The notes: generated from the sequence alone by a model not told the origin. A stretch of DNA of 64,000 nucleotides from Betaproteobacteria bacterium (GCA_021732605.1 JAKFUS010000011.1:4226-68225), one strand, 5' to 3'. Positions 1,248 to 58,326 are shown, numbered from the stretch's first letter. Program-made: numbers and translations.

Positions 1248-1390
1248 AGTTCAGGAGGGTGGCCGGTTGCGAGGAACTGGCTATGATGCACGCTGATCCG
1301 GTGCAAAACGGCAACTAAAAATGGCACCTAAATTTGGCAACTAAAAATGTCAACTACTACACGTTGAGCGTAAGAACTTGAACAGCAACC

Positions 1391-2104
1391 ATGTGGATCG
1401 ATGACATACCTGCAGGTCGAGGTTGGACTTTCCTATGGGGTGGCAGAATCTTGTGCGGCTGCGGCGGGATTCGTGCTGTTGATGTGCGCTGCCCCGCCTG
1501 TGACGCTACGCCATATGACTGTTCGCCCCAAACTATCACGATGGACGATGGACGCACATTTGAGGTTGCCGCCACCTTTATGGGAGCGGAAGGTCGCTAC
1601 GAAGACTATCTTTATCTCCACATGATGGAGCACAAATGGACTCGCGCGACAGCGCCAGGCCATGAAATGCTCGCGGGCGTTTCAGAAAAAGCTTCCGTCG
1701 TTCTACTCTTCTGGACTTACTTTGAAACCCGGATAGAGAGGCTTCTGAGAATTGGCCTAAGAGGAGTTCCGGTCGCCTTGGCTGAAGATGCACTTGAGCG
1801 GTACTCTTCTATAGGAGCACGCTTGGACACACTTTATCGCGTTCTATTCGGAACAACTTATGAGAAGGACCTAAAGGATAGCGGGCACTTGGCGCTATGG
1901 TCACATCTAAAGCATGTTCAGAAGAGGCGCAATGAATTTATTCATGGTAACCCCAAGGCGATCGACGACACCTTGGTCAATGAGGTCGTTGCGGGGATGC
2001 GCCAAGAACACGAAGCGTGGATTGACGTCTTCAATAGGCGTATCCGTGCGTCGCGCGCCCAACAGCCGCTTGCAGGGGACGCGCCACAAGCGGCGCGCCC
2101 CTGA
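1391..2104 (+). CDS. Hypothetical protein with an N-terminal 4-Cys cluster (possible zinc ribbon) and a C-terminal helical region carrying an R-N-x3-H (HEPN-like) motif
   Basis: 237-aa ORF. Cys cluster is LCGCGG...RCPACD (C22, C24, C34, C37). KRRNEFIHG sits at aa 178-186 (R180 at nt 1928-1930, H185 at nt 1943-1945). GC looks lower than in the flanks. Confidence 0.55.
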   Translation: MWIDDIPAGRGWTFLWGGRILCGCGGIRAVDVRCPACDATPYDCSPQTITMDDGRTFEVAATFMGAEGRYEDYLYLHMMEHKWTRATAPGHEMLAGVSEKASVVLLFWTYFETRIERLLRIGLRGVPVALAEDALERYSSIGARLDTLYRVLFGTTYEKDLKDSGHLALWSHLKHVQKRRNEFIHGNPKAIDDTLVNEVVAGMRQEHEAWIDVFNRRIRASRAQQPLAGDAPQAARP

Positions 2105-46555: not shown

Positions 46556-47242
46556 ATGCGGGCAATGAAGCAGCTCGCGCTGGGACTCGCGTCGCCACCG
46601 GCGCCGACGCTGGACAATTTTGTGATCGGTGAAAATGCGGAAGTCGTGACCGCACTGCGTGCGCTGGCGCAAGGCGACGATCGCGAGCGCTTCATTTATC
46701 TGTGGGGCGGCAGCGGCAGCGGGCGTACGCATTTGTTGCGCGCGGTGATGCAGGCCTTGCACGGGTCCGGCAGGACGGTGAGTTTGCATGCCGCCCCGGC
46801 AATGCTCGGCACGGGGAGCGCGGATGATGCAGTCGGTGTTGATGACGTGCAGCGCCTGGATGCCCCGGCGCAAATTGAATTATTCAATATATTCAATGAG
46901 TTAAAGGATGGCTCCGGCGTACTCGTGGCGACCGGGGATGTGCCCCCGGCGCGGCTCCCGCTGCGGCCCGACCTGCAGACGCGCCTGGCCTGGGGCCTGG
47001 TGTATGAGGTGCGCGGGCTGCGCGAAGACGATCGCCGTGCCGCGCTGCACGACTATGCCGCCGCCCGCGGCTTTGTTCTGCCGGCTGCGGTGGCTGACTA
47101 CCTGCTTGCACGGGCGCCGCGCGACCTGAGTTCGCTGCGCGCGATGGTCGATACGCTGGACCGGCTGTCGCTCGAGCAGAAACGCGGCATCACCGTGCCG
47201 CTGGCGCGCGAGCTGCTGCAGGCCGTGCCGCCTAAAAACTGA
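46556..47242 (+). CDS. hda: DnaA regulatory inactivator Hda
   Basis: QLALGLASPPAPTLDNFV... and the Walker A-like WGGSGSGRTHLL. Confidence 0.8.
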   Translation: MRAMKQLALGLASPPAPTLDNFVIGENAEVVTALRALAQGDDRERFIYLWGGSGSGRTHLLRAVMQALHGSGRTVSLHAAPAMLGTGSADDAVGVDDVQRLDAPAQIELFNIFNELKDGSGVLVATGDVPPARLPLRPDLQTRLAWGLVYEVRGLREDDRRAALHDYAAARGFVLPAAVADYLLARAPRDLSSLRAMVDTLDRLSLEQKRGITVPLARELLQAVPPKN

Positions 47243-47267
47243 AATCACGACTCAGCTGAACAAAAAC

Positions 47268-47309
47268 GACAACGATAACGAAGACGAAGACGAAGACGAA
47301 ACGGAACAG
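47268..47309. repeat. Intergenic hexamer-periodic tract (gacaac gataac gaagac x3 gaaacg gaacag)
   Basis: Counted directly. Three perfect gaagac units at 47280-47297. Confidence 0.9.
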
Positions 47310-47313
47310 CGGA

Positions 47314-47970
47314 ATGATTCTGGCATTGTTTGACCTCGACAACACGCTGCTCGCCGGCGACAGCGATTTTGAATGGGCGCAGTTCCTGATCGACCGCGGT
47401 GTGCTCGATCGCGCCACTTACGAAGCGCGCAACCAGGCGTTCTACGACCAGTACAAGGCGGGCACACTCGACATCCACGAGTTCCTCGATTTCCAGTTGA
47501 AGCCGCTGTCGCAGTATCCGCGTACGGTGCTCGATGCCTGGCATGCCGAGTACATGAAACAACGCATCCTGCCGATGATCCGCGATTCGGCGCGGGCACT
47601 GGTCGACAAGCATCGCGACGAGGTGCGCGTGATCATCACTGCGACCAACAGTTTTGTTACGGCGCCGATTGCGCGCGCCTTCGGCATCGAACACCTGATT
47701 GCCACCGAACCCGAGGTGCGCGACGGTGTGTTCACCGGCGGCGTCAGCGGCACGCCGTGTTTTCGCGAGGGCAAGGTCGAGCGCCTGGAGGCGTGGCTGG
47801 CCGAACGTGGGGAAAATATAAAAAGTGTTTTAAAATCAACATTTTACAGTGACTCGCATAACGACCTGCCGCTGTTGGAGCAAGTCGGGCATCCAGTGGC
47901 GGTGGATCCCGACGCCGCATTGCGCGCGCATGCCGCCGCGCGCGGCTGGCCGATCATCAGTCTGAGCTGA
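47314..47970 (+). CDS. HAD-IB family hydrolase (SerB-like phosphatase)
   Basis: LALFDLDNTLL motif I and a C-terminal SDSHNDLPLL motif. Confidence 0.75.
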   Translation: MILALFDLDNTLLAGDSDFEWAQFLIDRGVLDRATYEARNQAFYDQYKAGTLDIHEFLDFQLKPLSQYPRTVLDAWHAEYMKQRILPMIRDSARALVDKHRDEVRVIITATNSFVTAPIARAFGIEHLIATEPEVRDGVFTGGVSGTPCFREGKVERLEAWLAERGENIKSVLKSTFYSDSHNDLPLLEQVGHPVAVDPDAALRAHAAARGWPIISLS

Positions 47971-48099
47971 GCAGTTTGCTGTGAGCGACCGCTGCCGGCC
48001 CCATAGTGCCGCGATGACCGCCATGTATAATCGCGCCGTTTTCCTCTGCTGCGGCGCGTGGATTCGATCCCCCCTGAATGCGCTGAACGATATTTCCGC

Positions 48100-49446
48100 A
48101 TGATCACCAAGTTGCTCGGCCGCGTGTTTTCGGGCCGCATGTTCAAATCGGCCAAACCGCGAATCATCGCGGTGTCTGAACACGGCATCACGCGTGACCG
48201 CATCGGCAGCTGTGCGCTGCGCACCTGTGATGCGCTGCAGGAAGCGGGTTACGCCGCGTTTGTTGTCGGCGGCGCGGTGCGCGACCTGATTCTCGGCCGC
48301 GATCCCAAGGATTTTGACGTGGCCACCAACGCCACACCCGAGGAAGTGCGCGGCCTTTTCCGGCGTTCGCGGGTGATCGGCCGGCGTTTCAAAATTGTCC
48401 ACGTGCTGTGCGGCCGCGACATGGTCGAGGTATCGACCTTCCGCGGGCCCGCGGTCGATGCCGGTGCCGGTACGCAGGTTGAAGACGAACACGGCCGCCT
48501 GTTGCGCGACAACGTCTGGGGCGACCAGGCCCAAGACGCGACTCGACGCGATTTCACCATCAATGCGCTGTTCTACGACCCGGCACGCGAACAGATCTGG
48601 GATTACCACGGTGGTGTGGCCGATCTCAAACGTAAAAGGCTGCGCATGATCGGCGAGCCGGCGCAGCGTTATCGCGAGGATCCGGTGCGCATGCTGCGCG
48701 CGGTGCGTTTCGCCGCATCCTGCGGCCTCGAAATTGACGGCGCTACGCGCAAACCGATCAAGGCGCAGGCCACTTTGCTCGCCAATGTGCCGGCGGCGCG
48801 GCTGTTCGACGAAATGCTCAAGCTGCTGCTTTCGGGGCATGCCGCTGAATGCGTGAAACGACTGCGCCGCGAAGGTTTGCACCACGGCATGCTGCCGCTG
48901 CTCGACGTGATTCTTGAGCAGCCGCTGGGCGAGCGATTCGTGATGCTGGCGTTGAAAAACACCGATGCGCGCGTCCTGGCCGGCAAACCGATTTCTCCGG
49001 CCTTCCTGTTTGCCGCGCTGACCTGGCACGAAGTGCTGGCGGCGTGGAAAAAAATCGAAGCCCGCGGCGTGCCGCCGGTGCCGGCCTTGTATGAGGCGAT
49101 GGACCAGGTCATTACCACGCAGACCGAACAACTCGCGATCCCGCGCCGGTTTACTTCGGACATGAAGGATTTGTGGGCGTTGCAGCCGCGCTTCGAACAG
49201 CGCGCCGGCCAGCGTCCGTTCCGCCTGCTCGAACACCCGCGGTTTCGCGCCGCTTATGATTTTCTGCTGTTGCGCTGTGAAAGTGGCGAACTGGACAAGG
49301 CCATCGGTGACTGGTGGACCCATTTCCAGGATGCCGATACCGAGACCCGCGAGTCCATGCTGGTGGCGGATACCGGGCCGGCGAAAAAGCGCCGCAAGCG
49401 CCGCAAGCGCAAGTCCGGCGCTGCCCCGGCTCCTGCCGCGGACTGA
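48100..49446 (+). CDS. pcnB: Poly(A) polymerase I
   Basis: AFVVGGAVRDLILGRDPKDFDVAT and RDFTINAL motifs, with a basic C-terminal tail. The start is uncertain (GTG 48058 or ATG 48100). Confidence 0.85.
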   Translation: MITKLLGRVFSGRMFKSAKPRIIAVSEHGITRDRIGSCALRTCDALQEAGYAAFVVGGAVRDLILGRDPKDFDVATNATPEEVRGLFRRSRVIGRRFKIVHVLCGRDMVEVSTFRGPAVDAGAGTQVEDEHGRLLRDNVWGDQAQDATRRDFTINALFYDPAREQIWDYHGGVADLKRKRLRMIGEPAQRYREDPVRMLRAVRFAASCGLEIDGATRKPIKAQATLLANVPAARLFDEMLKLLLSGHAAECVKRLRREGLHHGMLPLLDVILEQPLGERFVMLALKNTDARVLAGKPISPAFLFAALTWHEVLAAWKKIEARGVPPVPALYEAMDQVITTQTEQLAIPRRFTSDMKDLWALQPRFEQRAGQRPFRLLEHPRFRAAYDFLLLRCESGELDKAIGDWWTHFQDADTETRESMLVADTGPAKKRRKRRKRKSGAAPAPAAD

Positions 49447-49451
49447 CGCGG

Positions 49452-49955
49452 GTGGCGGCGCAAACGCATACCGCCTGCGTCGCGCTGGGCGCGAACATTG
49501 GCGAGCCGCTGCGACAGATTGAAGCCGCATTTGCTGCGCTGGCGGCCTTGCCCGGCACCAGGCTCATCGCTCGTTCTTCACTGTACCGCAGCGCGCCGGT
49601 CGGTTATGCCGACCAGCCGGATTTCATTAACGCAGTGGCCATGATCGAAACCGTGCTGGCGCCGCATGCACTGCTCAATGCGCTGCTGGAGCTCGAGCGT
49701 GCACATGGCCGTGTCCGCGAATTCCCCAATGCCCCACGTACGCTGGACCTCGACATCGTGCTCTACGGTGACATGGTGTTGCAGGAGCCGGGGCTGACGA
49801 TTCCGCATGCGCGCATGCTGGAGCGCGCTTTTGTGATGGTGCCGCTGGCGGAAATCGCGCCGGACACCGTGGTGCCGGGGCAGGGCCGGGTGTGTGATCT
49901 TGCGGCAAAGGTAGATGCTGCCAGCGTCTCGCAATTACAGAAAATCCTGGCATGA
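49452..49955 (+). CDS. folK: 2-amino-4-hydroxy-6-hydroxymethyldihydropteridine diphosphokinase
   Basis: ACVALGANIG...YRSAPVGYADQPDFINAV...RTLDLDIVLYG. GTG start just after the pcnB stop. Confidence 0.85.
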   Translation: MAAQTHTACVALGANIGEPLRQIEAAFAALAALPGTRLIARSSLYRSAPVGYADQPDFINAVAMIETVLAPHALLNALLELERAHGRVREFPNAPRTLDLDIVLYGDMVLQEPGLTIPHARMLERAFVMVPLAEIAPDTVVPGQGRVCDLAAKVDAASVSQLQKILA

Positions 49956-49983
49956 CTCTCGCTGCCAAATGGGGACGTGCGGC

Positions 49984-50628
49984 ATGAATCTAGCCGCGAA
50001 GTATCGGTATATTGTGGTCGAAGGTCCGATCGGTTCAGGGAAAACCACGCTGGCACGACGCCTGGCGACGCATCTTGGCGCAGCGCCGTTGTTTGAAGAC
50101 CCGGACGCCAATCCTTTCCTGCCCGGTTTTTACCGGGATCCCACGCGCCATGCGCTGCCGGCGCAACTGTTCTTTTTGTTCCAGCGTCTGAATCAGGTCA
50201 GGGATATTGTGCAGTCCGATCTGTTTCGCAGTGTCACCGTCGCTGATTTCATGCTGGAAAAAGATCCGTTGTTTGCGCAGCTGACGCTGAACGACCACGA
50301 GCTTGCCTTGTACCGGCAGATCTACGACCATCTCAAACCGCAGGCGCCGCAGCCGGACCTGGTGGTGTATTTGCAGGCGGGTGCGGAAACGCTGGTGGAG
50401 CGGGTGCGCCGGCGCGCCGCTGCTTATGAAAAAACCATACCCGACGAATACCTGGTGCGACTGGCCGATGCCTACGCGCGTTTTTTCCATCATTACACTG
50501 CAGCACCACTGCTGATCGTGAATTCCGAAAATCTGAACTTCGTTGATTCGGCGGCGGATTTTGATTTATTGTTGCAGCGGGTCAACGCCATGCGCGGTCC
50601 GCGCGAGTTTTTCAGCCTCGGAAGTTAG
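49984..50628 (+). CDS. Deoxynucleoside kinase family protein
   Basis: IVVEGPIGSGKTTLARRL P-loop. 214 aa. Confidence 0.7.
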   Translation: MNLAAKYRYIVVEGPIGSGKTTLARRLATHLGAAPLFEDPDANPFLPGFYRDPTRHALPAQLFFLFQRLNQVRDIVQSDLFRSVTVADFMLEKDPLFAQLTLNDHELALYRQIYDHLKPQAPQPDLVVYLQAGAETLVERVRRRAAAYEKTIPDEYLVRLADAYARFFHHYTAAPLLIVNSENLNFVDSAADFDLLLQRVNAMRGPREFFSLGS

Positions 50629-50641
50629 CCAGGAGAGCGAC

Positions 50642-51436
50642 ATGCGTATTACGCTGAGCACGCTGCACAAGATGATGCGGGACGGCCAGAAGATCACCAT
50701 GCTGACCTGTTACGACGCCAGTTTCGCGACGCTGCTGGACGGCGCCGGACTCGATACGCTGCTGATCGGCGATTCGTTGGGCAATGTGCTGCAGGGCCAT
50801 GAATCGACGCTGCCGGTGTCGCTGCGCGACATCGTGTATCACACGCAATGCGTGGCGCGTGGCGCCAAAACTGCCTTCATCATCGGCGACATGCCCTTCG
50901 GCACTTTTCAGGTCAGTCCGCAGGATGCTTTCCGCAATGCTGCCGAAATCATGGCGGCCGGCGCGCACATGGTGAAAATCGAGGGCGGGCGGCCGATGCT
51001 GGAAACGATTTCGTTCCTGACCGAGCGCGGCATCCCGGTCTGCGGCCACCTCGGGTTGACGCCGCAGTCGGTGCACCAGCTCGGCGGTTATCGCGTGCAG
51101 GGCAAGGCCGAGGATGATGCGCAGCGCATGCTTGATGATGCACGCATCCTCGAACAGGCGGGCGCCGGCATGATCGTGCTGGAAGCGATACCTGCAGCCC
51201 TGGCCAGTCAGATCACCACGGCGGCGAAAGTGCCGACGATCGGTATCGGTGCGGGCATCGACTGTCATGGCCAGGTGCTGGTGTTGCATGACATGCTCGA
51301 TGTTTATCCCGGCAAAAAGGCCAAATTCGTCAAAAATTACATGAAGGCCGCGGCGGGCTCGATCCAGGATGCCGTGGCGCTGTACGTGAAGGAAGTACGC
51401 GAGGGCCGCTTTCCCGGCAAGGAACATTCTTTTTAG
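50642..51436 (+). CDS. panB: 3-methyl-2-oxobutanoate hydroxymethyltransferase
   Basis: KITMLTCYDASFA...LLIGDSLGNV...VKIEGG. Confidence 0.9.
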   Translation: MRITLSTLHKMMRDGQKITMLTCYDASFATLLDGAGLDTLLIGDSLGNVLQGHESTLPVSLRDIVYHTQCVARGAKTAFIIGDMPFGTFQVSPQDAFRNAAEIMAAGAHMVKIEGGRPMLETISFLTERGIPVCGHLGLTPQSVHQLGGYRVQGKAEDDAQRMLDDARILEQAGAGMIVLEAIPAALASQITTAAKVPTIGIGAGIDCHGQVLVLHDMLDVYPGKKAKFVKNYMKAAAGSIQDAVALYVKEVREGRFPGKEHSF

Positions 51437-51452
51437 GATGGAGGAGTGGTGT

Positions 51453-51578
51453 TTGAGGAGTGAGGATTGAGGGATGAGGAGTGGAGGGTGACGCGTTATT
51501 TTTTTGCGCCACACTCGCCAGCATCAACCTTCCATCTACAATACGCATCCCCTTAGCCACTCAATCCTCACTCCTCAA
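51453..51578. repeat. Intergenic inverted repeat: 19-bp perfect arms 88 bp apart, with reiterated gaggagtg in the left arm region
   Basis: ttgaggagtgaggattgag (51453-51471) is the reverse complement of ctcaatcctcactcctcaa (51560-51578). Confidence 0.85.
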
Positions 51579-51591
51579 TCCTGTCTAAATA

Positions 51592-52431
51592 ATGGACGTC
51601 ATACATTCAGTTTCCGAATTGAGGGAACGCCTGCGCCGCGAGCCGGACAACGTGTTCGTGCCGACCATGGGCAATCTGCACGAAGGCCATATCGAGCTGA
51701 TGCGCATCGCCAAGCCGCGTGCGGCATGCACGGTGGTCAGCATTTTCGTCAACCGCCTGCAGTTCGGGCCGCGCGAGGATTTTGACCGTTACCCGCGCAC
51801 TCTCGAGGCCGATTGCGAACGCTTGCGCAATGCCGGAGTTGATGTGGTGTTTGTGCCGGACGAAAAAGAAATTTATCCCGAAAAGCAGACCTACGTGGTC
51901 GAGCCTTCGGATCTGCAGCACATTCTCGACGGCGGCGCCCGCCCTGGCCACTTCCGCGGCGTATCCACAGTGGTGCTGAAACTGTTCAACATGGTGTCGC
52001 CGCATGCCGCGATTTTCGGCAAGAAGGATTACCAGCAGTGCCTTGTGCTGACCAATATGGTGCGCCAGTTCGCGCTGCCGATCGAAATCATCCTGGCGGA
52101 AACCGTGCGCGCTGAGGATGGGCTGGCGCTGTCCTCGCGAAATGCCTACCTGAGTCCGGCCGAGCGTCAGGAGGCGCCGCGGCTCTATCGAGTGCTGCGC
52201 AATGCACGCGGCGAAATCGCGATGGGTGCGCGTGACTATCAGCGTGTCGAGCTGGCGGCGATGTCCGAACTCGCGCGCCATGGCTGGAAGCCGGATTATG
52301 TGGCGGTGCGCCGTTGTACGGATCTTCAGCCCCCGGGCAATGGTGAGACTGAGTTGGTGGTGCTGGCTGCCGCGCGACTGGGCAAGACACGCCTGATCGA
52401 CAATGTCGAGGTGAAGCGGCCTGTAGCGTGA
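51592..52431 (+). CDS. panC: Pantoate-beta-alanine ligase
   Basis: [15 protein letters not shown] and FGKKDYQQ motifs. Confidence 0.9.
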
Positions 52432-52462
52432 AGAAGATGTTGCTGAGCAGATTCAGCGTTGT

Positions 52463-52576
52463 TGAAATTTGCAGAAACTGAATGATGGTGCCGGAAGCCG
52501 GCCCCTCAATGCACTCAACAAACGCGAGATTTTAGCTACGCTGAAATTTACAGAAACTAAATGATGGTGCCGGAAC
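52463..52576 (-). repeat. Two degenerate direct copies of the tRNA-Leu 3' end plus its downstream flank
   Basis: Copy 1 at 52463-52501 is tgaaatttgcagaaactgaatgatggtgccggaagccgg. Copy 2 at 52542-52576 is tgaaatttacagaaactaaatgatggtgccggaac. The genuine junction at 52639-52680 is tgaaatctgcggaaactgaaggtggtgccggaagccggaatc. Confidence 0.85.
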
Positions 52577-52660
52577 TCGTCACAGCACCCCCTTGAGGGG
52601 TGTCCGGGAACCGGCTTCCGCGTAATAAATCACGCAGATGAAATCTGCGGAAACTGAAGG

Positions 52661-52745
52661 TGGTGCCGGAAGCCGGAATCGAACCGGCACGCCTTGCGGC
52701 GCGGGATTTTGAGTCCCGTGCGTCTACCAATTCCGCCATCCCGGC
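52661..52745 (-). tRNA. tRNA-Leu (anticodon CAA), CCA encoded
   Basis: Hand-folded from GCCGGGATGGCGGAATTGGTAGACGCACGGGACTCAAAATCCCGCGCCGCAAGGCGTGCCGGTTCGATTCCGGCTTCCGGCACCA. It has a 7-bp acceptor stem, a CT-CAA-AA anticodon loop, a long variable arm and a GGTTCGATTCC T-loop. Confidence 0.9.
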
Positions 52746-52806
52746 ATGGGGCGGCGATTATCCCTTAAATCTGCGGAGCGGGGCAACCTGCAGCTGACAA
52801 GACAAG

Positions 52807-55001
<2,195 letters not shown>

Positions 55002-55090
55002 ATTAGGTTAAAATACAACGCTTTGAGTGAGCCTGACTTAGTGACCCAAACTCGAGTCAGGGTTCTCTTCCACCGCAACGGAGGTTTATC

Positions 55091-55417
55091 TTGTTAATCA
55101 GTCCCGCATGGGCGCAGGCATCCGCCCCCGCCGCAGGTGGCGGCATCGAAAGCATGCTGCTCATCGTCGCGATGTTCGGTGTGATGTATTTCCTGATGAT
55201 CCGCCCGCAGATGAAGCGCGCGAAAGAGCACAAAACCATGGTCGAAAGTCTGCAGAAGGGCGATGAAGTGATCACCGCCGGCGGCATCCTCGGTCGTATT
55301 AGCAAGGTCGATGATCAATACGTCACCGTGGCGATTGCTGCAGGTGTTGAAATCCAGGCGCAGCGGGCGGCGATCCAGACCGTGCTGCCCAAGGGCACCA
55401 TCAAAACCATCCAGTAA
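55091..55417 (+). CDS. yajC: Preprotein translocase subunit YajC
   Basis: FLMIRPQMKRAKEHKTMVESLQKGDEVITAGGILGRI. TTG start. Confidence 0.85.
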   Translation: MLISPAWAQASAPAAGGGIESMLLIVAMFGVMYFLMIRPQMKRAKEHKTMVESLQKGDEVITAGGILGRISKVDDQYVTVAIAAGVEIQAQRAAIQTVLPKGTIKTIQ

Positions 55418-55533
55418 ACGAGTGCTCGGTGAACGGGTGAGCAAGCAAGTTCACCGGTGCGCTGTTGCCCATTCACCCGTCAACTCGTTCTGCTTCGCTC
55501 CAAGTGTTCCCTTGACCTTTTTACGACCTTAAA

Positions 55534-57363
55534 ATGAATCGTTATCCCCTCTGGAAATATCTTCTGATTGTTGCTGCCGTGGCAATCGGGCTGCTTTATA
55601 CCCTGCCTAATTTTTACGGCGAAGTGCCCGCGGTGCAGGTGTCGCCGCTGCGCAGCAACCTGAAGGCCGATGCCGCGCTGATGGCGCGTGTCGAAGCAAC
55701 CGTGAAAAAAGCTGAGCTGGCGGTCCAGGGCATCGCGCTGGATGCCACCAGTGTCAAGGTGCGGCTTTCCAGTACCGAAGACCAGCTGAAGGCCAAGGAT
55801 GCCCTGCAGGCTGCCCTGGGCGAGGACTATGTGGTGGCCCTGAACCTGCTGTCGCGCAGCCCACAGTGGCTGACGTCGATCGGCGCACTGCCGATGTATC
55901 TGGGCTTGGATCTGCGCGGCGGTGTGCATTTCCTGATGCAGGTCGACATGAAGGCGGCGCTGACCAAAAAGGTCGAGACCTATACCAACGACATTCGCGG
56001 CATGCTGCGTGAGCAGCGCATCCAGTACTCGGGCATCGCGCGCGAAGGCCAGGCCGTGGCTGTGCGATTCCGCGAAGCGGCGTTGCGCGACAAGGCGCTG
56101 GCGCGCATTACCAAGGACATGCCCGACCTCGAACTGAAGACGGCCGACGATGCCGGGGAATACCGGATCACCGGCACATTGAAGGTCGAGGCGCAGCGCC
56201 GCACCCAGGAATTTGCGCTGCAGCAGAACATCAACACCCTCCGCAACCGCATCAACGAACTGGGTGTCGCCGAGCCGATAATCCAGCAGCAGGGCGCCGA
56301 CCGCGTGGTCGTGCAATTGCCCGGCGTGCAGGATACCGCCAAGGCCAAGGACATCCTCGGCCGCACCGCGACGCTGGAAGTGCGCATGGTCGATGAGGAA
56401 CGCATGGATCCGGGCTCGCTCGAGCAGGCCAAGGCCGGCCAGCCCCCGTTCGGCACCGAACTTTATTACGAACGCAACGGCCAGGCAGTGCTGGTGAAAA
56501 AGCAGGTGGTGCTCACCGGCGAGCGCATCAACGACGCCCAGCCCGGCTTTGACGGGCAGACCGGCGAGCCGGCGGTGCATATCAATCTCGACGGCGCCGG
56601 GGCGCGGATATTCCAGCAGGTCACCCGCGAGAGCATCGGCAAACGCATGGCGATCCTGCTGTTCGAGCGCGGCAAGGGCGAGGTGGTCACCGCGCCGGTG
56701 ATCCGCAGCGAAATTGGCGGCGGCCGGGTGCAGATCAGCGGGCGTATGACGACACAGGAAGCCAATGACGTGTCGCTGCTGCTGCGCGCAGGCGCCTTGG
56801 CGGCACCGATGGATATCGTCGAGGAGCGCACGGTCGGGCCGTCGCTGGGGGCTGACAACATTAAGATCGGTTTCAATTCCACGCTGTACGGTTTTGCCGC
56901 GATCGCTGTGTTCATGATCGGTTATTACGCCATGGTCGGTTTCTTTTCCGTGGTGGCGCTGGCGGCCAACGTGCTGTTCCTGGTGGCACTGCTGTCGATG
57001 TTGCAGGCGACACTGACCTTGCCGGGCATGGCTGGCATCGCGCTGACCCTCGGCATGGCAATCGACGCCAACGTGCTGATCAACGAACGCATCCGCGAGG
57101 AATTGCGCAACGGCAATACCCCGCATGCAGCCATATTCGCAGGGTATGACCGCGCCTGGGGCACGATTCTGGATTCCAACGTCACCACGCTGATTGCGGG
57201 CTTTGCGCTGTTTGCCTTCGGCTCCGGCGCAGTCAAAGGGTTCGCCGTCGTGCTGTGCCTCGGCATCCTGACCTCGATTTTCAGTGCGGTGGTGGTATCA
57301 CGCGGCTTGATGAATCTCTATTACGGCGGTCAGCGCAAGCTGGATCGCATCAGTATCGGCTAA
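55534..57363 (+). CDS. secD: Protein translocase subunit SecD
   Basis: MNRYPLWKYLLI...LGLDLRGGVHF..., with 6 TM helices at the C-terminus. Confidence 0.9.
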   Translation: MNRYPLWKYLLIVAAVAIGLLYTLPNFYGEVPAVQVSPLRSNLKADAALMARVEATVKKAELAVQGIALDATSVKVRLSSTEDQLKAKDALQAALGEDYVVALNLLSRSPQWLTSIGALPMYLGLDLRGGVHFLMQVDMKAALTKKVETYTNDIRGMLREQRIQYSGIAREGQAVAVRFREAALRDKALARITKDMPDLELKTADDAGEYRITGTLKVEAQRRTQEFALQQNINTLRNRINELGVAEPIIQQQGADRVVVQLPGVQDTAKAKDILGRTATLEVRMVDEERMDPGSLEQAKAGQPPFGTELYYERNGQAVLVKKQVVLTGERINDAQPGFDGQTGEPAVHINLDGAGARIFQQVTRESIGKRMAILLFERGKGEVVTAPVIRSEIGGGRVQISGRMTTQEANDVSLLLRAGALAAPMDIVEERTVGPSLGADNIKIGFNSTLYGFAAIAVFMIGYYAMVGFFSVVALAANVLFLVALLSMLQATLTLPGMAGIALTLGMAIDANVLINERIREELRNGNTPHAAIFAGYDRAWGTILDSNVTTLIAGFALFAFGSGAVKGFAVVLCLGILTSIFSAVVVSRGLMNLYYGGQRKLDRISIG

Positions 57364-57378
57364 CCGGCGACCAAGACC

Positions 57379-58326
57379 ATGGAATTTTTCAGAATCAAGA
57401 AAGACATCCCGTTCATGCGCCATGCGCGCATGTTCAACATTATTTCGCTGGTCACTTTTTTGATCGCCGTCGGTTCGTTGGCGATCCAAGGCCTGAACTT
57501 CGGTGTCGACTTCACCGGCGGCACGGTGATGGAGGTTGCCTACAAGCAGCCGCCGCAACTCGATGACGTACGGGCCTCGGTGGCCAAGCTCGGCTTTGCC
57601 GAGGCTTCGGTGCAGAATTTCGGCACGGCCCGTGACGTGCTGATCCGTTTGCCTGTCAAGGAAGGCCTGACCAGCGCCAAACTCTCCGAACAGGTGCTGG
57701 CAGAGTTGCGCAAGCAGCAGGCGGATGTCGAAATACGCCGGGTCGAGTTCGTCGGGCCGCAGGTCGGCAAGGAGTTGTTCGAGAGCGGGGCGCTGGCGCT
57801 GCTGTTTGTATGTATCGGCATCGTCGCTTACCTCGCGATGCGCTTTGAGTGGAAATTCGGCCTCGCGGCGATCATCGCCAACCTGCATGACGTGATCATC
57901 ATCGTCGGCGTGTTCTCGATTTTTCGCTGGGAATTTTCGTTGCCGGTTCTGGCTGCGGTGCTGGCGATTCTCGGTTATTCAGTCAACGAGTCGGTGGTCG
58001 TGTTCGACCGGGTGCGCGAATGTTTCCGCAGCCGGCAATATCGCAATGCCTCGGTACCGGAGGTTCTGGATGCCGCGATCACCCAGACCATGTCGCGCAC
58101 CATTATTACTCACGGTTCGACGCAGATGATGGTGCTGGCGATGCTGTTGTTCGGCGGCGAAACGCTGTTTCATTTCGCGCTGGCACTGACCATCGGTATC
58201 TGTTTCGGCATTTACTCCTCGGTACTGGTGGCAAGTCCGATCGTGATGTACCTCGGCGTGTCGCGCAACGATCTGGTCAAGCCCGAAACCGTGGCCAAGC
58301 CCGGTGAGGACGGGGCTGTAGTCTAA
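57379..58326 (+). CDS. secF: Protein translocase subunit SecF
   Basis: [16 protein letters not shown]...[14 protein letters not shown]. Confidence 0.9.

Follow-up and report, generated by a model that had tools for sequence, protein, structure and literature searches.

A probable fossil array of tRNA-Leu(CAA) 3′ ends at a betaproteobacterial integration hotspot, with a 27-nt hairpin insert

The panC-tRNA-Leu interval and its repeated units

The window analyzed here is a 64,000-nucleotide stretch of DNA from a member of the Betaproteobacteria. It carries a single tRNA gene, an intact tRNA-Leu(CAA) with an encoded CCA end at 52661..52745 on the minus strand (ARAGORN; Rfam tRNA, 57.8 bits). The gene lies between panC (ORF at 51592-52431, plus strand) and queA (52807-53850, plus strand) and is transcribed toward panC. 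A consensus scan placed a sigma-70-like promoter, TTGCCC-18-GATAAT, at 52757..52786 on the minus strand, 11 nt upstream of the mature tRNA 5′ end. The order of genes across 46556-58326 (hda, a HAD hydrolase gene, pcnB, folK, a deoxynucleoside kinase gene, panB, panC, tRNA-Leu, queA, tgt, yajC, secD, secF) is kept in close relatives, and the variable part is the panC-tRNA interval only. Searching the region with Rfam 15, we found no match besides the tRNA.

Downstream of the tRNA lie two extra direct copies of a unit that joins the last 11-16 nt of the tRNA to a flank of ~22 nt. A preliminary description of the locus had reported this triplication, and our analysis confirmed it. A repeat search recovered the flank as three in-register copies of 20 nt at 90% identity (52463-52482, 52542-52561, and 52639-52658). 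The genuine tRNA 3′ end at 52661-52676, TGGTGCCGGAAGCCGG on the plus strand, is repeat copy A and the attB core; copy B (52565-52580) agrees with it at 13 of 16 positions, the first 11 being identical, and copy C (52486-52501) at all 16. Start-to-start spacings are 79 and 96-97 nt, and the distances given earlier, 97 and 176 bp from the genuine junction, were right. Copies B and C have 45 nt in common at 84% identity. Both were recovered when the window was scanned with a 23-nt unit pattern allowing up to 3 mismatches, whereas 100 shuffles of the window averaged 0.00 matches. Copy A differs from this pattern by a 1-nt indel at the junction.

The copies were said to have no cargo between them, and indeed the only ORFs overlapping the repeat interval encode 22-60 aa, none of them plausible. 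Hence, the 96- and 79-nt intervals hold remnants and not an island. Since the same architecture is found in independent assemblies of relatives, we can rule out an assembly artefact.

The inner unit, alpha, spans 96 nt (52565..52660, minus strand) and consists of a flank, a hairpin, a T-arm remnant, a 27-nt insert, and an acceptor 3′ strand with CCA. Its flank, F_A (52639..52660, minus strand; sense CCTTCAGTTTCCGCAGATTTCA; delimited by repeat search and alignment), directly follows the genuine tRNA end and contains the 5′ arm of the trailer hairpin. That hairpin, CGCAGAT-TTC-ATCTGCG followed by TGATTTATTA, lies at 52623..52649 on the minus strand and has a 7-bp stem; the terminator scan that found it flagged two sites against 0.7 expected, about the chance rate. 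Folds of the alpha units of relatives retain the hairpin, and neither the scan nor direct reading found an intact one in copies B and C. It is probably the terminator or a processing hairpin of tRNA-Leu itself.

Next in alpha is the T-arm remnant of a displaced tRNA 3′ end, identified by direct reading at 52603..52619 on the minus strand (sense GGAAGCCGGTTCCCGGA; the real T-arm is GCCGGTTCGATTCCGGC). It has a counterpart in relatives. The preliminary description had noticed a degenerate T-arm here, which holds for this remnant; it had not recognized the 27-nt hairpin insert within the same DNA. This insert, X′ (52576..52602, minus strand; sense CACCCCTCAAGGGGGTGCTGTGACGAG), adjoins the T-stem remnant exactly on one side and the acceptor 3′ strand of alpha on the other. 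The acceptor strand with its CCA reads TTCCGGCACCA, and the junction reads X′, TCCCGGCACCA, CCTTCA.... The copy B core within alpha occupies 52565-52575, 11 nt identical to the tRNA end.

The outer unit, beta, spans 79 nt (52486..52564, minus strand) and lacks X′. It comprises the flank F_B (52542-52564), a spacer that is T-rich and holds a decayed hairpin, and the copy C core (52486-52501), which matches the tRNA end over all 16 nt (GGCCGGCTTCCGGCACCA). Beyond it, the outermost flank F_C (52463-52485) and a tail run up to the panC stop codon (together 52432..52485, minus strand); F_C is the oldest displaced flank. Within the window alpha and beta are 59% identical overall, with unit ends (core plus flank) 84-90% alike. 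Each unit folds into a flank hairpin and a larger hairpin ending in ACCA, with z of -2.0 to -3.4, and the whole trailer has z = -3.35.

The same tRNA in related genomes

Relatives were found by QueA, among 80 GTDB species representatives and then by a protein search that gave a graded series, and their contigs were fetched (cited here as L numbers). The best GTDB representative had 72% QueA identity. None of the 80 shares the unit, and they proved useful only for L026 and L038, described below. The window PanC has no exact match on record.

Among close relatives the number of downstream units is 0, 1, or 2, and a separate 93-nt insert upstream of the tRNA is present or absent. The window has alpha and beta and lacks the upstream insert. 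L081-85 and L122 (QueA 95%) have the insert and no unit; their panC ends 23 nt from the tRNA. At 93% identity L110 has a beta-type flank directly after the tRNA and L120 and L121 have no unit, all three without the insert. L088 and L093 (90%) carry one alpha unit. L089, with the same QueA protein as L088, carries two tandem alpha units of 96 and 108 nt, while in L087, L090-92, and L094, again with that protein, an integrase gene lies directly downstream of the tRNA; the upstream insert is present throughout this group. L095 and L096 (89%) have one alpha unit, other distal genes, and no insert, and L106 has the insert and a beta unit that bears X′. In L111, L112, and L116 (80-83%) neither units nor insert are found. 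The genes distal to the array vary among relatives and include panC, PNPOx, and a histidine kinase gene, among others. The architecture is thus restricted to a narrow clade, in which its distribution is patchy. Identical units at identical spacing in distant, element-free relatives, which the preliminary description had named as a sign of another origin, were not seen: relatives at or below 83% QueA identity had no units.

The units themselves are old. Window alpha is 81-91% identical to the alpha units of L088, L089, and L095, and window beta is 83% identical to the L110 flank and 76% to the X′-bearing unit of L106. With alpha-alpha identities of 81-91% across genomes against 59% between alpha and beta, we conclude that the two are old paralogues kept or lost by lineage. 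These values do not agree with a recent amplification of the att site, amplification being one of the earlier suggestions. Set against L110, window alpha stands out as a discrete 96-nt insert delimited by the 11-nt core.

One population, defined by an identical QueA (P0006), carries three alleles at this position: units alpha_a and alpha_b in tandem (L089, the two being 91% alike), a 5,824-bp island with alpha_b (L087 and L108), and a single a/b hybrid unit (L088 and L093). The hybrid combines the flank-proximal part of L089 unit a with the X′ part of L089 unit b. Had an integrase acted at the cores, one complete unit would have been lost cleanly. The crossover here lies inside the units, hence it reflects homologous unequal recombination. 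This difference between L088 and L089 is the sole copy-number change observed directly, and it is homologous, not site specific. At the contig ends upstream of dNK-panB-panC, L089:1-104 and L108:4470-4722 also hold a tandem repeat with a period of ~35 nt, seen as staggered BLAST hits.

The island allele is whole once L087 and L108, both from the 88.5-kb contig ENA NODE_521, are merged. Its order is PNPOx, alpha_b, attR (TGGTGC-GGGAGCCAGAA), the 5,824-bp island, and the tRNA, so the island occupies exactly the position of unit a. The attR repeats the tRNA end over 19 nt, with 1 nt deleted. The island ends hold six copies of (G/A)ATACCCCC, which, judged by sequence, look like arm-type integrase sites; the arms of the L087 island resemble the flank F weakly (~12 of 16 nt). 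The L087 integrase is of the P4 type, with Arm-DNA-bind_3 and Phage_int_M domains, and stops at 256 aa at the start of the catalytic domain. This truncation catches island decay in progress. The rest of the island (L087:1-5736 and L108) encodes proteins of 552 and 346 aa without a Pfam match and a cpYpsA-domain protein; together these may be a small defence-type cargo.

Methylophilus sp. Leaf416 (L038, 2500-9935) has a second element at its queA-adjacent tRNA-Leu(CAA). It is ~7.3 kb long, encodes an intact 403-aa P4-type integrase (40% identical to that of L087) and a Mob_Pre relaxase, and has a 31-nt repeat of the tRNA end (87%) 7.26 kb away. It is integrative and probably mobilisable. Taken together, the two elements mark this tRNA as a real, recurrent attB; they bear out the earlier reading of this tRNA 3′ end as an attB of tyrosine integrases, and the comparison of related genomes suggested beforehand did reveal islands there. 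At the window locus itself (47-58 kb) there is no integrase. An attP composed of the T-arm remnant, X′, core, and flank was found neither in IMG/VR nor in the JGI metagenome matches, and the earlier idea that the unit might be a phage or plasmid attP drew 0 matches in the IMG/VR scan.

A comparable arrangement occurs in an unrelated gammaproteobacterium, an Ectothiorhodospiraceae MAG (L026, 4364-4647), where panC, tRNA-Leu(CAA), two extra tRNA 3′ ends, and pgi follow one another without cargo. The extra copies are 22 nt at 91% and 14 nt exact, at spacings of 118 and 81 nt, and a hairpin, CAGTTTTG-TTCCAGA-CAAAACTG, precedes one of them. This is an independent case of a similar cargo-less scar array, and what is repeated there is the tRNA end alone.

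The 27-nt insert X′

The X′ hairpin, CACCCCTCAAGGGGGTGCTG(N4)GAG, is 27 nt long. It occurs once in the window, and nhmmer found no copy outside tRNA sites in ~1.5 Mb of fetched loci; among the loci of relatives it lies solely beside tRNA-Leu(CAA). Several of these relatives have it in the 93-nt insert between promoter and tRNA (L081:5848-5940, L088:3776-3868, and L106:7027-7119), which is absent from the window at 52745/52746. The components of that insert, in order, are a second copy of the acceptor 5′ strand (GCCGGGA), the sense-oriented X, a pseudo version of the tRNA-Leu 5′ half (TGGCGGAATAGGTCGTCGCATGGGACTT...) that covers the D-arm and some of the anticodon arm, and a tail resembling F. 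Counted by eye, the pseudo half is ~70% identical to the real one over 37 nt. The upstream X is the reverse complement of X′, so inverted repeats of ~35 nt flank the tRNA. Presence of the insert does not track QueA relatedness: it is found at 95% and 90% and is missing at 93% and 89%. The mirror placement might be explained by targeting of GCCGGGA, available on both acceptor-stem strands, or by a template switch across the acceptor-stem palindrome; with the latter, X′ would have been copied from the downstream remnant.

We then looked beyond the clade. In JGI metagenome contigs, the scan found the 20-nt X core in 13 stretches, namely three tRNA-Leu loci of the clade and 10 contigs of other organisms with GC contents of 38-62%. 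Most of the 10 contain the same 27-31 nt, (C)ACTCTTTTCAG-CACCCCCTTGAGGGGTG-T(AA), in differing genomic contexts. In some, X lies within larger palindromic elements that are themselves small, a ~75-nt block in four contigs and a ~60-nt shell with inverted ends in two. The block, starting TTAGTRCCTTAC with X inside, is found at L098:4150-4300, L102:180-500, L104:1-60, and L107:600-900, among flanking genes that differ. L102 and L107 have ~270 nt in common, a long inverted repeat included, and in L098 the inverted ends TTAGTGCCTT...AAGGCACTTA are ~120 nt apart. From their sequences, these X-bearing blocks look like small non-autonomous repeat elements. Rfam gave no match over X in 12 metagenomic loci. 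On the L105 contig, radC and an XRE-family gene flank an isolated group II intron fragment (D1-D4; RF02005, 79 bits; 1300-1463, minus strand), which is ~90 nt from a copy of X; the contig carries no intron-encoded protein, and the fragment is unrelated to X. IMG/VR scans for the unit, X, and the X tail returned 0 matches, BLAST searches of plasmids and phages (PLSDB, INPHARED) with flanked X and with the ~258-nt L107 element found no match, and the X sequence string retrieved 0 papers in a literature search.

A coding gene supplied filled and empty alleles. At L109:3352-3385 X′ lies in frame in galU, and a search with the L109 GalU returned close homologues of 288 and 279 aa, one of them named Ca. 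Thioglobus. Their alignment shows a clean 9-aa indel, TPQGG(A/T)EKS, and X′ translates as TPQGGAEKS. The galU alleles of these Ca. Thioglobus-like bacteria are filled (L109, ACAAA|CACCCCTCAAGGGGGTGCTGAAAAGAG|TGATGG), empty (L117), or doubled to 54 nt (L118). Comparing filled with empty, we found neither a target duplication nor terminal inverted repeats around X′. The insert is present in 43 of 120 close GalU homologues, as a single 9-aa insert in 41 and doubled to 18 aa in two, and its distribution on a neighbor-joining tree is patchy, requiring at least 21 state changes. Its sequence drifts (e.g., TLQDGTEES), which indicates that it decays after arrival.

Several known classes were considered for X′ and rejected. 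The galU alleles, with neither terminal inverted repeats nor target-site duplication, speak against a MITE. A dispersed repeat of the REP/RAYT type fits poorly with one copy in the window, none elsewhere in the loci, and hosts of 38-62% GC. By spacing or sequence, compared with consensus features, X does not fit a sigma-54 promoter, a preQ1 riboswitch, a CRISPR repeat, a Tn3-type inverted repeat, or an IS200/IS605 end. The hairpin resembles a pair of the (G/A)ATACCCCC arm-type sites, with just 6-7 nt in common, a weak lead. In the tRNA remnants TCCCGG occurs on both sides of X′, as a 6-nt target duplication would, but this is probably a repeat internal to the tRNA, and galU has no duplication. 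Finally, 18 nt of the X′ tail, GGGGGTGCTGAAAAGAGT, recur exactly beside nhaR in E. coli (L119:1501-1531), in 4164 of 5426 genomes. The match lies in coding sequence of a fimbrial operon, is not an insert, and is probably coincidental.

X′ thus lands in intergenic DNA, in small palindromic elements, in frame in galU, and, in the tRNA-Leu remnants, precisely at the acceptor stem's base. We tentatively suggest that CACCCCTCAAGGGGGTGCTGAAAAGAG is an undescribed, very small insertion that spreads, or is repeatedly generated, across distant bacteria without terminal repeats, target duplication, or a linked transposase. This is a possibility, at rather less than even odds.

Small palindromic mobile inserts are known from Rickettsia, where palindromic elements sit in coding genes, and from yeast mitochondria, as GC clusters. 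Like such inserts, among them bacterial MITEs (PMC10969869, PMC2229807), X′ is a short hairpin found both between genes and in frame, occurs as filled and empty alleles, and degenerates once inserted. It differs in its 27-nt length, in lacking terminal inverted repeats and a target-site duplication in galU, in occurring once per 64-kb window, in having the same sequence in hosts of 38-62% GC, and in having no transposase.

Origin of the array

We favor, at a probability of about 0.6, the reading that an integration hotspot has left a fossil array in the panC-tRNA interval and that homologous recombination has since reshaped it. In this betaproteobacterial lineage, the tRNA-Leu(CAA) beside queA is an attB of P4-type tyrosine-integrase elements. 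With every integration a new tRNA 3′ end and a new terminator-bearing flank would arrive, and the old ones would be displaced outward. Elements would then decay by deletion rather than by precise excision, so that the att arms alone survive, and the window would retain two such remnants, the 96-nt alpha and the 79-nt beta, with the cargo gone. These are old, orthologous to the units of other genomes and kept or lost lineage by lineage, and their present reshaping would be RecA-type unequal crossover between units, not the work of an integrase. The first flank hairpin would probably still be the tRNA terminator, the outer copies would most likely be inert, and one remnant has additionally received X′. 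Established by the sequences are the repeats, their counterparts across genomes, the islands at this tRNA, the hybrid allele, and the discreteness of X′; a beginning of the units as att arms of elements, and their present lack of function, are inferred.

The preliminary description had proposed serial integration and excision instead. Precise excision restores attB and leaves no scar, and therefore cannot make an array. In an integration the tRNA is made whole again by the 3′ end and flank that the element carries, and the old ones are displaced, the principle on which Islander works (PMC4383910). The displaced fragments here begin at the T-stem, and the T-stem region is a usual crossover sublocation, with attP there in 1836 of 3919 Islander islands (PMC4383910). 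In tycheposons, partial tRNAs pile up from successive integrations and degenerated elements (bioRxiv 10.1101/2020.12.28.424599).

The source of alpha and beta is itself inferred, as no element was found with an attP matching the unit arms. On our reading of the sequences, alpha and beta also appear to have in common one derived deletion in the T-loop region, which duplication of a decayed unit fits at least as well as two independent integrations. For both reasons a duplicative origin remains a serious rival, in which slippage or unequal crossover of the segment from T-arm to terminator, followed by decay, made the array and the islands are coincidental. The units are homologous along their whole length (flank, T-arm remnant, and core), the L088 hybrid demonstrates unequal crossover at work here, and neither integrase nor cargo lies between the window copies. 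Plain tandem duplication is countered by repeat boundaries at the tRNA 3′ end and T-stem, the place of att fragments, and by the integrase island that takes the position of a unit in one population. Nor does it sit easily with alpha and beta spacers that are essentially unrelated (59% overall), with distal genes that differ in every lineage, or with the similar array in the unrelated genome L026, which repeats just the tRNA end. We regard it as a less likely origin, albeit the strongest of the alternatives.

The units might instead be kept for function, as hairpin-plus-CCA modules acting as terminators, processing signals, or ACCA minihelix decoys; in a variant, the inverted X and X′ copies of relatives could form a leader-trailer stalk for RNase III. 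The conservation of units at 81-91% between genomes whose QueA differ by 10% could hint at constraint, the first flank scores terminator-like, and the z values of the unit and trailer folds point the same way. So do the X′ hairpin, near-invariant between units while adjacent bases vary, and the ~34-nt inverted repeats on either side of the tRNA in L088, L089, and L106. Yet L081-85 and L122, at 95% QueA identity, and L120 and L121, at 93%, have no downstream unit, which makes a functional RNA role less likely. Neither the window nor L095 nor L110 has the upstream copy; decay has affected the hairpins of both copy B and copy C; more distant relatives lack everything; and within the coding gene galU the same X′ does no harm and decays. 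A retained function is, on balance, improbable.

We give slightly less credence still to live miniature elements, in which the 96- and 79-nt units, att-flanked and without an integrase of their own, would be moved by an integrase in trans. Direct repeats of the 11-nt core bound each unit, alpha distinguishes the window from L110 as one discrete block, and P4-type integrases act at tRNA-Leu(CAA) in the clade. The copy-number change that could be resolved is nevertheless a hybrid: the crossover took place within the units, and no unit was lost cleanly at its cores. The cores differ in length, copy B having 11 nt and copy C 16 nt; the window locus has no integrase nearby, and that of the related island is truncated. 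A circle of ~100 bp would also be a poor recombination substrate, to judge from the stiffness of DNA. Mobile att-flanked units without integrases do exist: the CIMEs of Streptococcus thermophilus, which accrete with ICESt1-type elements, have lost the integrase by internal deletion and stand in tandem at one site. Known CIMEs are kilobases long and mobilisable, unlike the window units of ~100 nt, whose mobility is doubtful.

The fossil array, which we prefer, resembles two described systems. Like the displaced tRNA fragments mapped by Islander (PMC4383910), it consists of direct repeats of a tRNA 3′ end downstream of an intact, regenerated tRNA, its fragments start near the T-stem, and the P4-type islands of relatives (L087/L108 and L038) are bounded likewise. 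It differs in that only 96 and 79 nt of non-coding DNA separate the window fragments and in that the downstream flank is repeated along with the tRNA part. Islander would reject the window candidates, which have no integrase and are too short. The likeness to the tycheposons of Prochlorococcus (bioRxiv 10.1101/2020.12.28.424599) is in dynamics: there newcomers push older elements outward, and fragmented integrases and scattered partial tRNAs record older events, as the L087 island beside an older unit would. The host is different, the integrases here are of the P4 type, and decay is nearly complete, with the att arms left.

As a scar array the locus is ordinary; the 27-nt X′ is its more interesting part. 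The array shows what a tRNA hotspot looks like after islands erode to stubs of ~100 nt that homologous recombination then shuffles. It should be useful for mapping islands by tRNA fragments, as filters that demand an integrase miss such relics. If an identical 27-mer truly enters both a 62%-GC betaproteobacterium and a 38%-GC Ca. Thioglobus, then some agent or mechanism must write X′, and the exact spot that X′ takes in tRNA remnants, on the boundary of the acceptor stem, would hint at how this happens.
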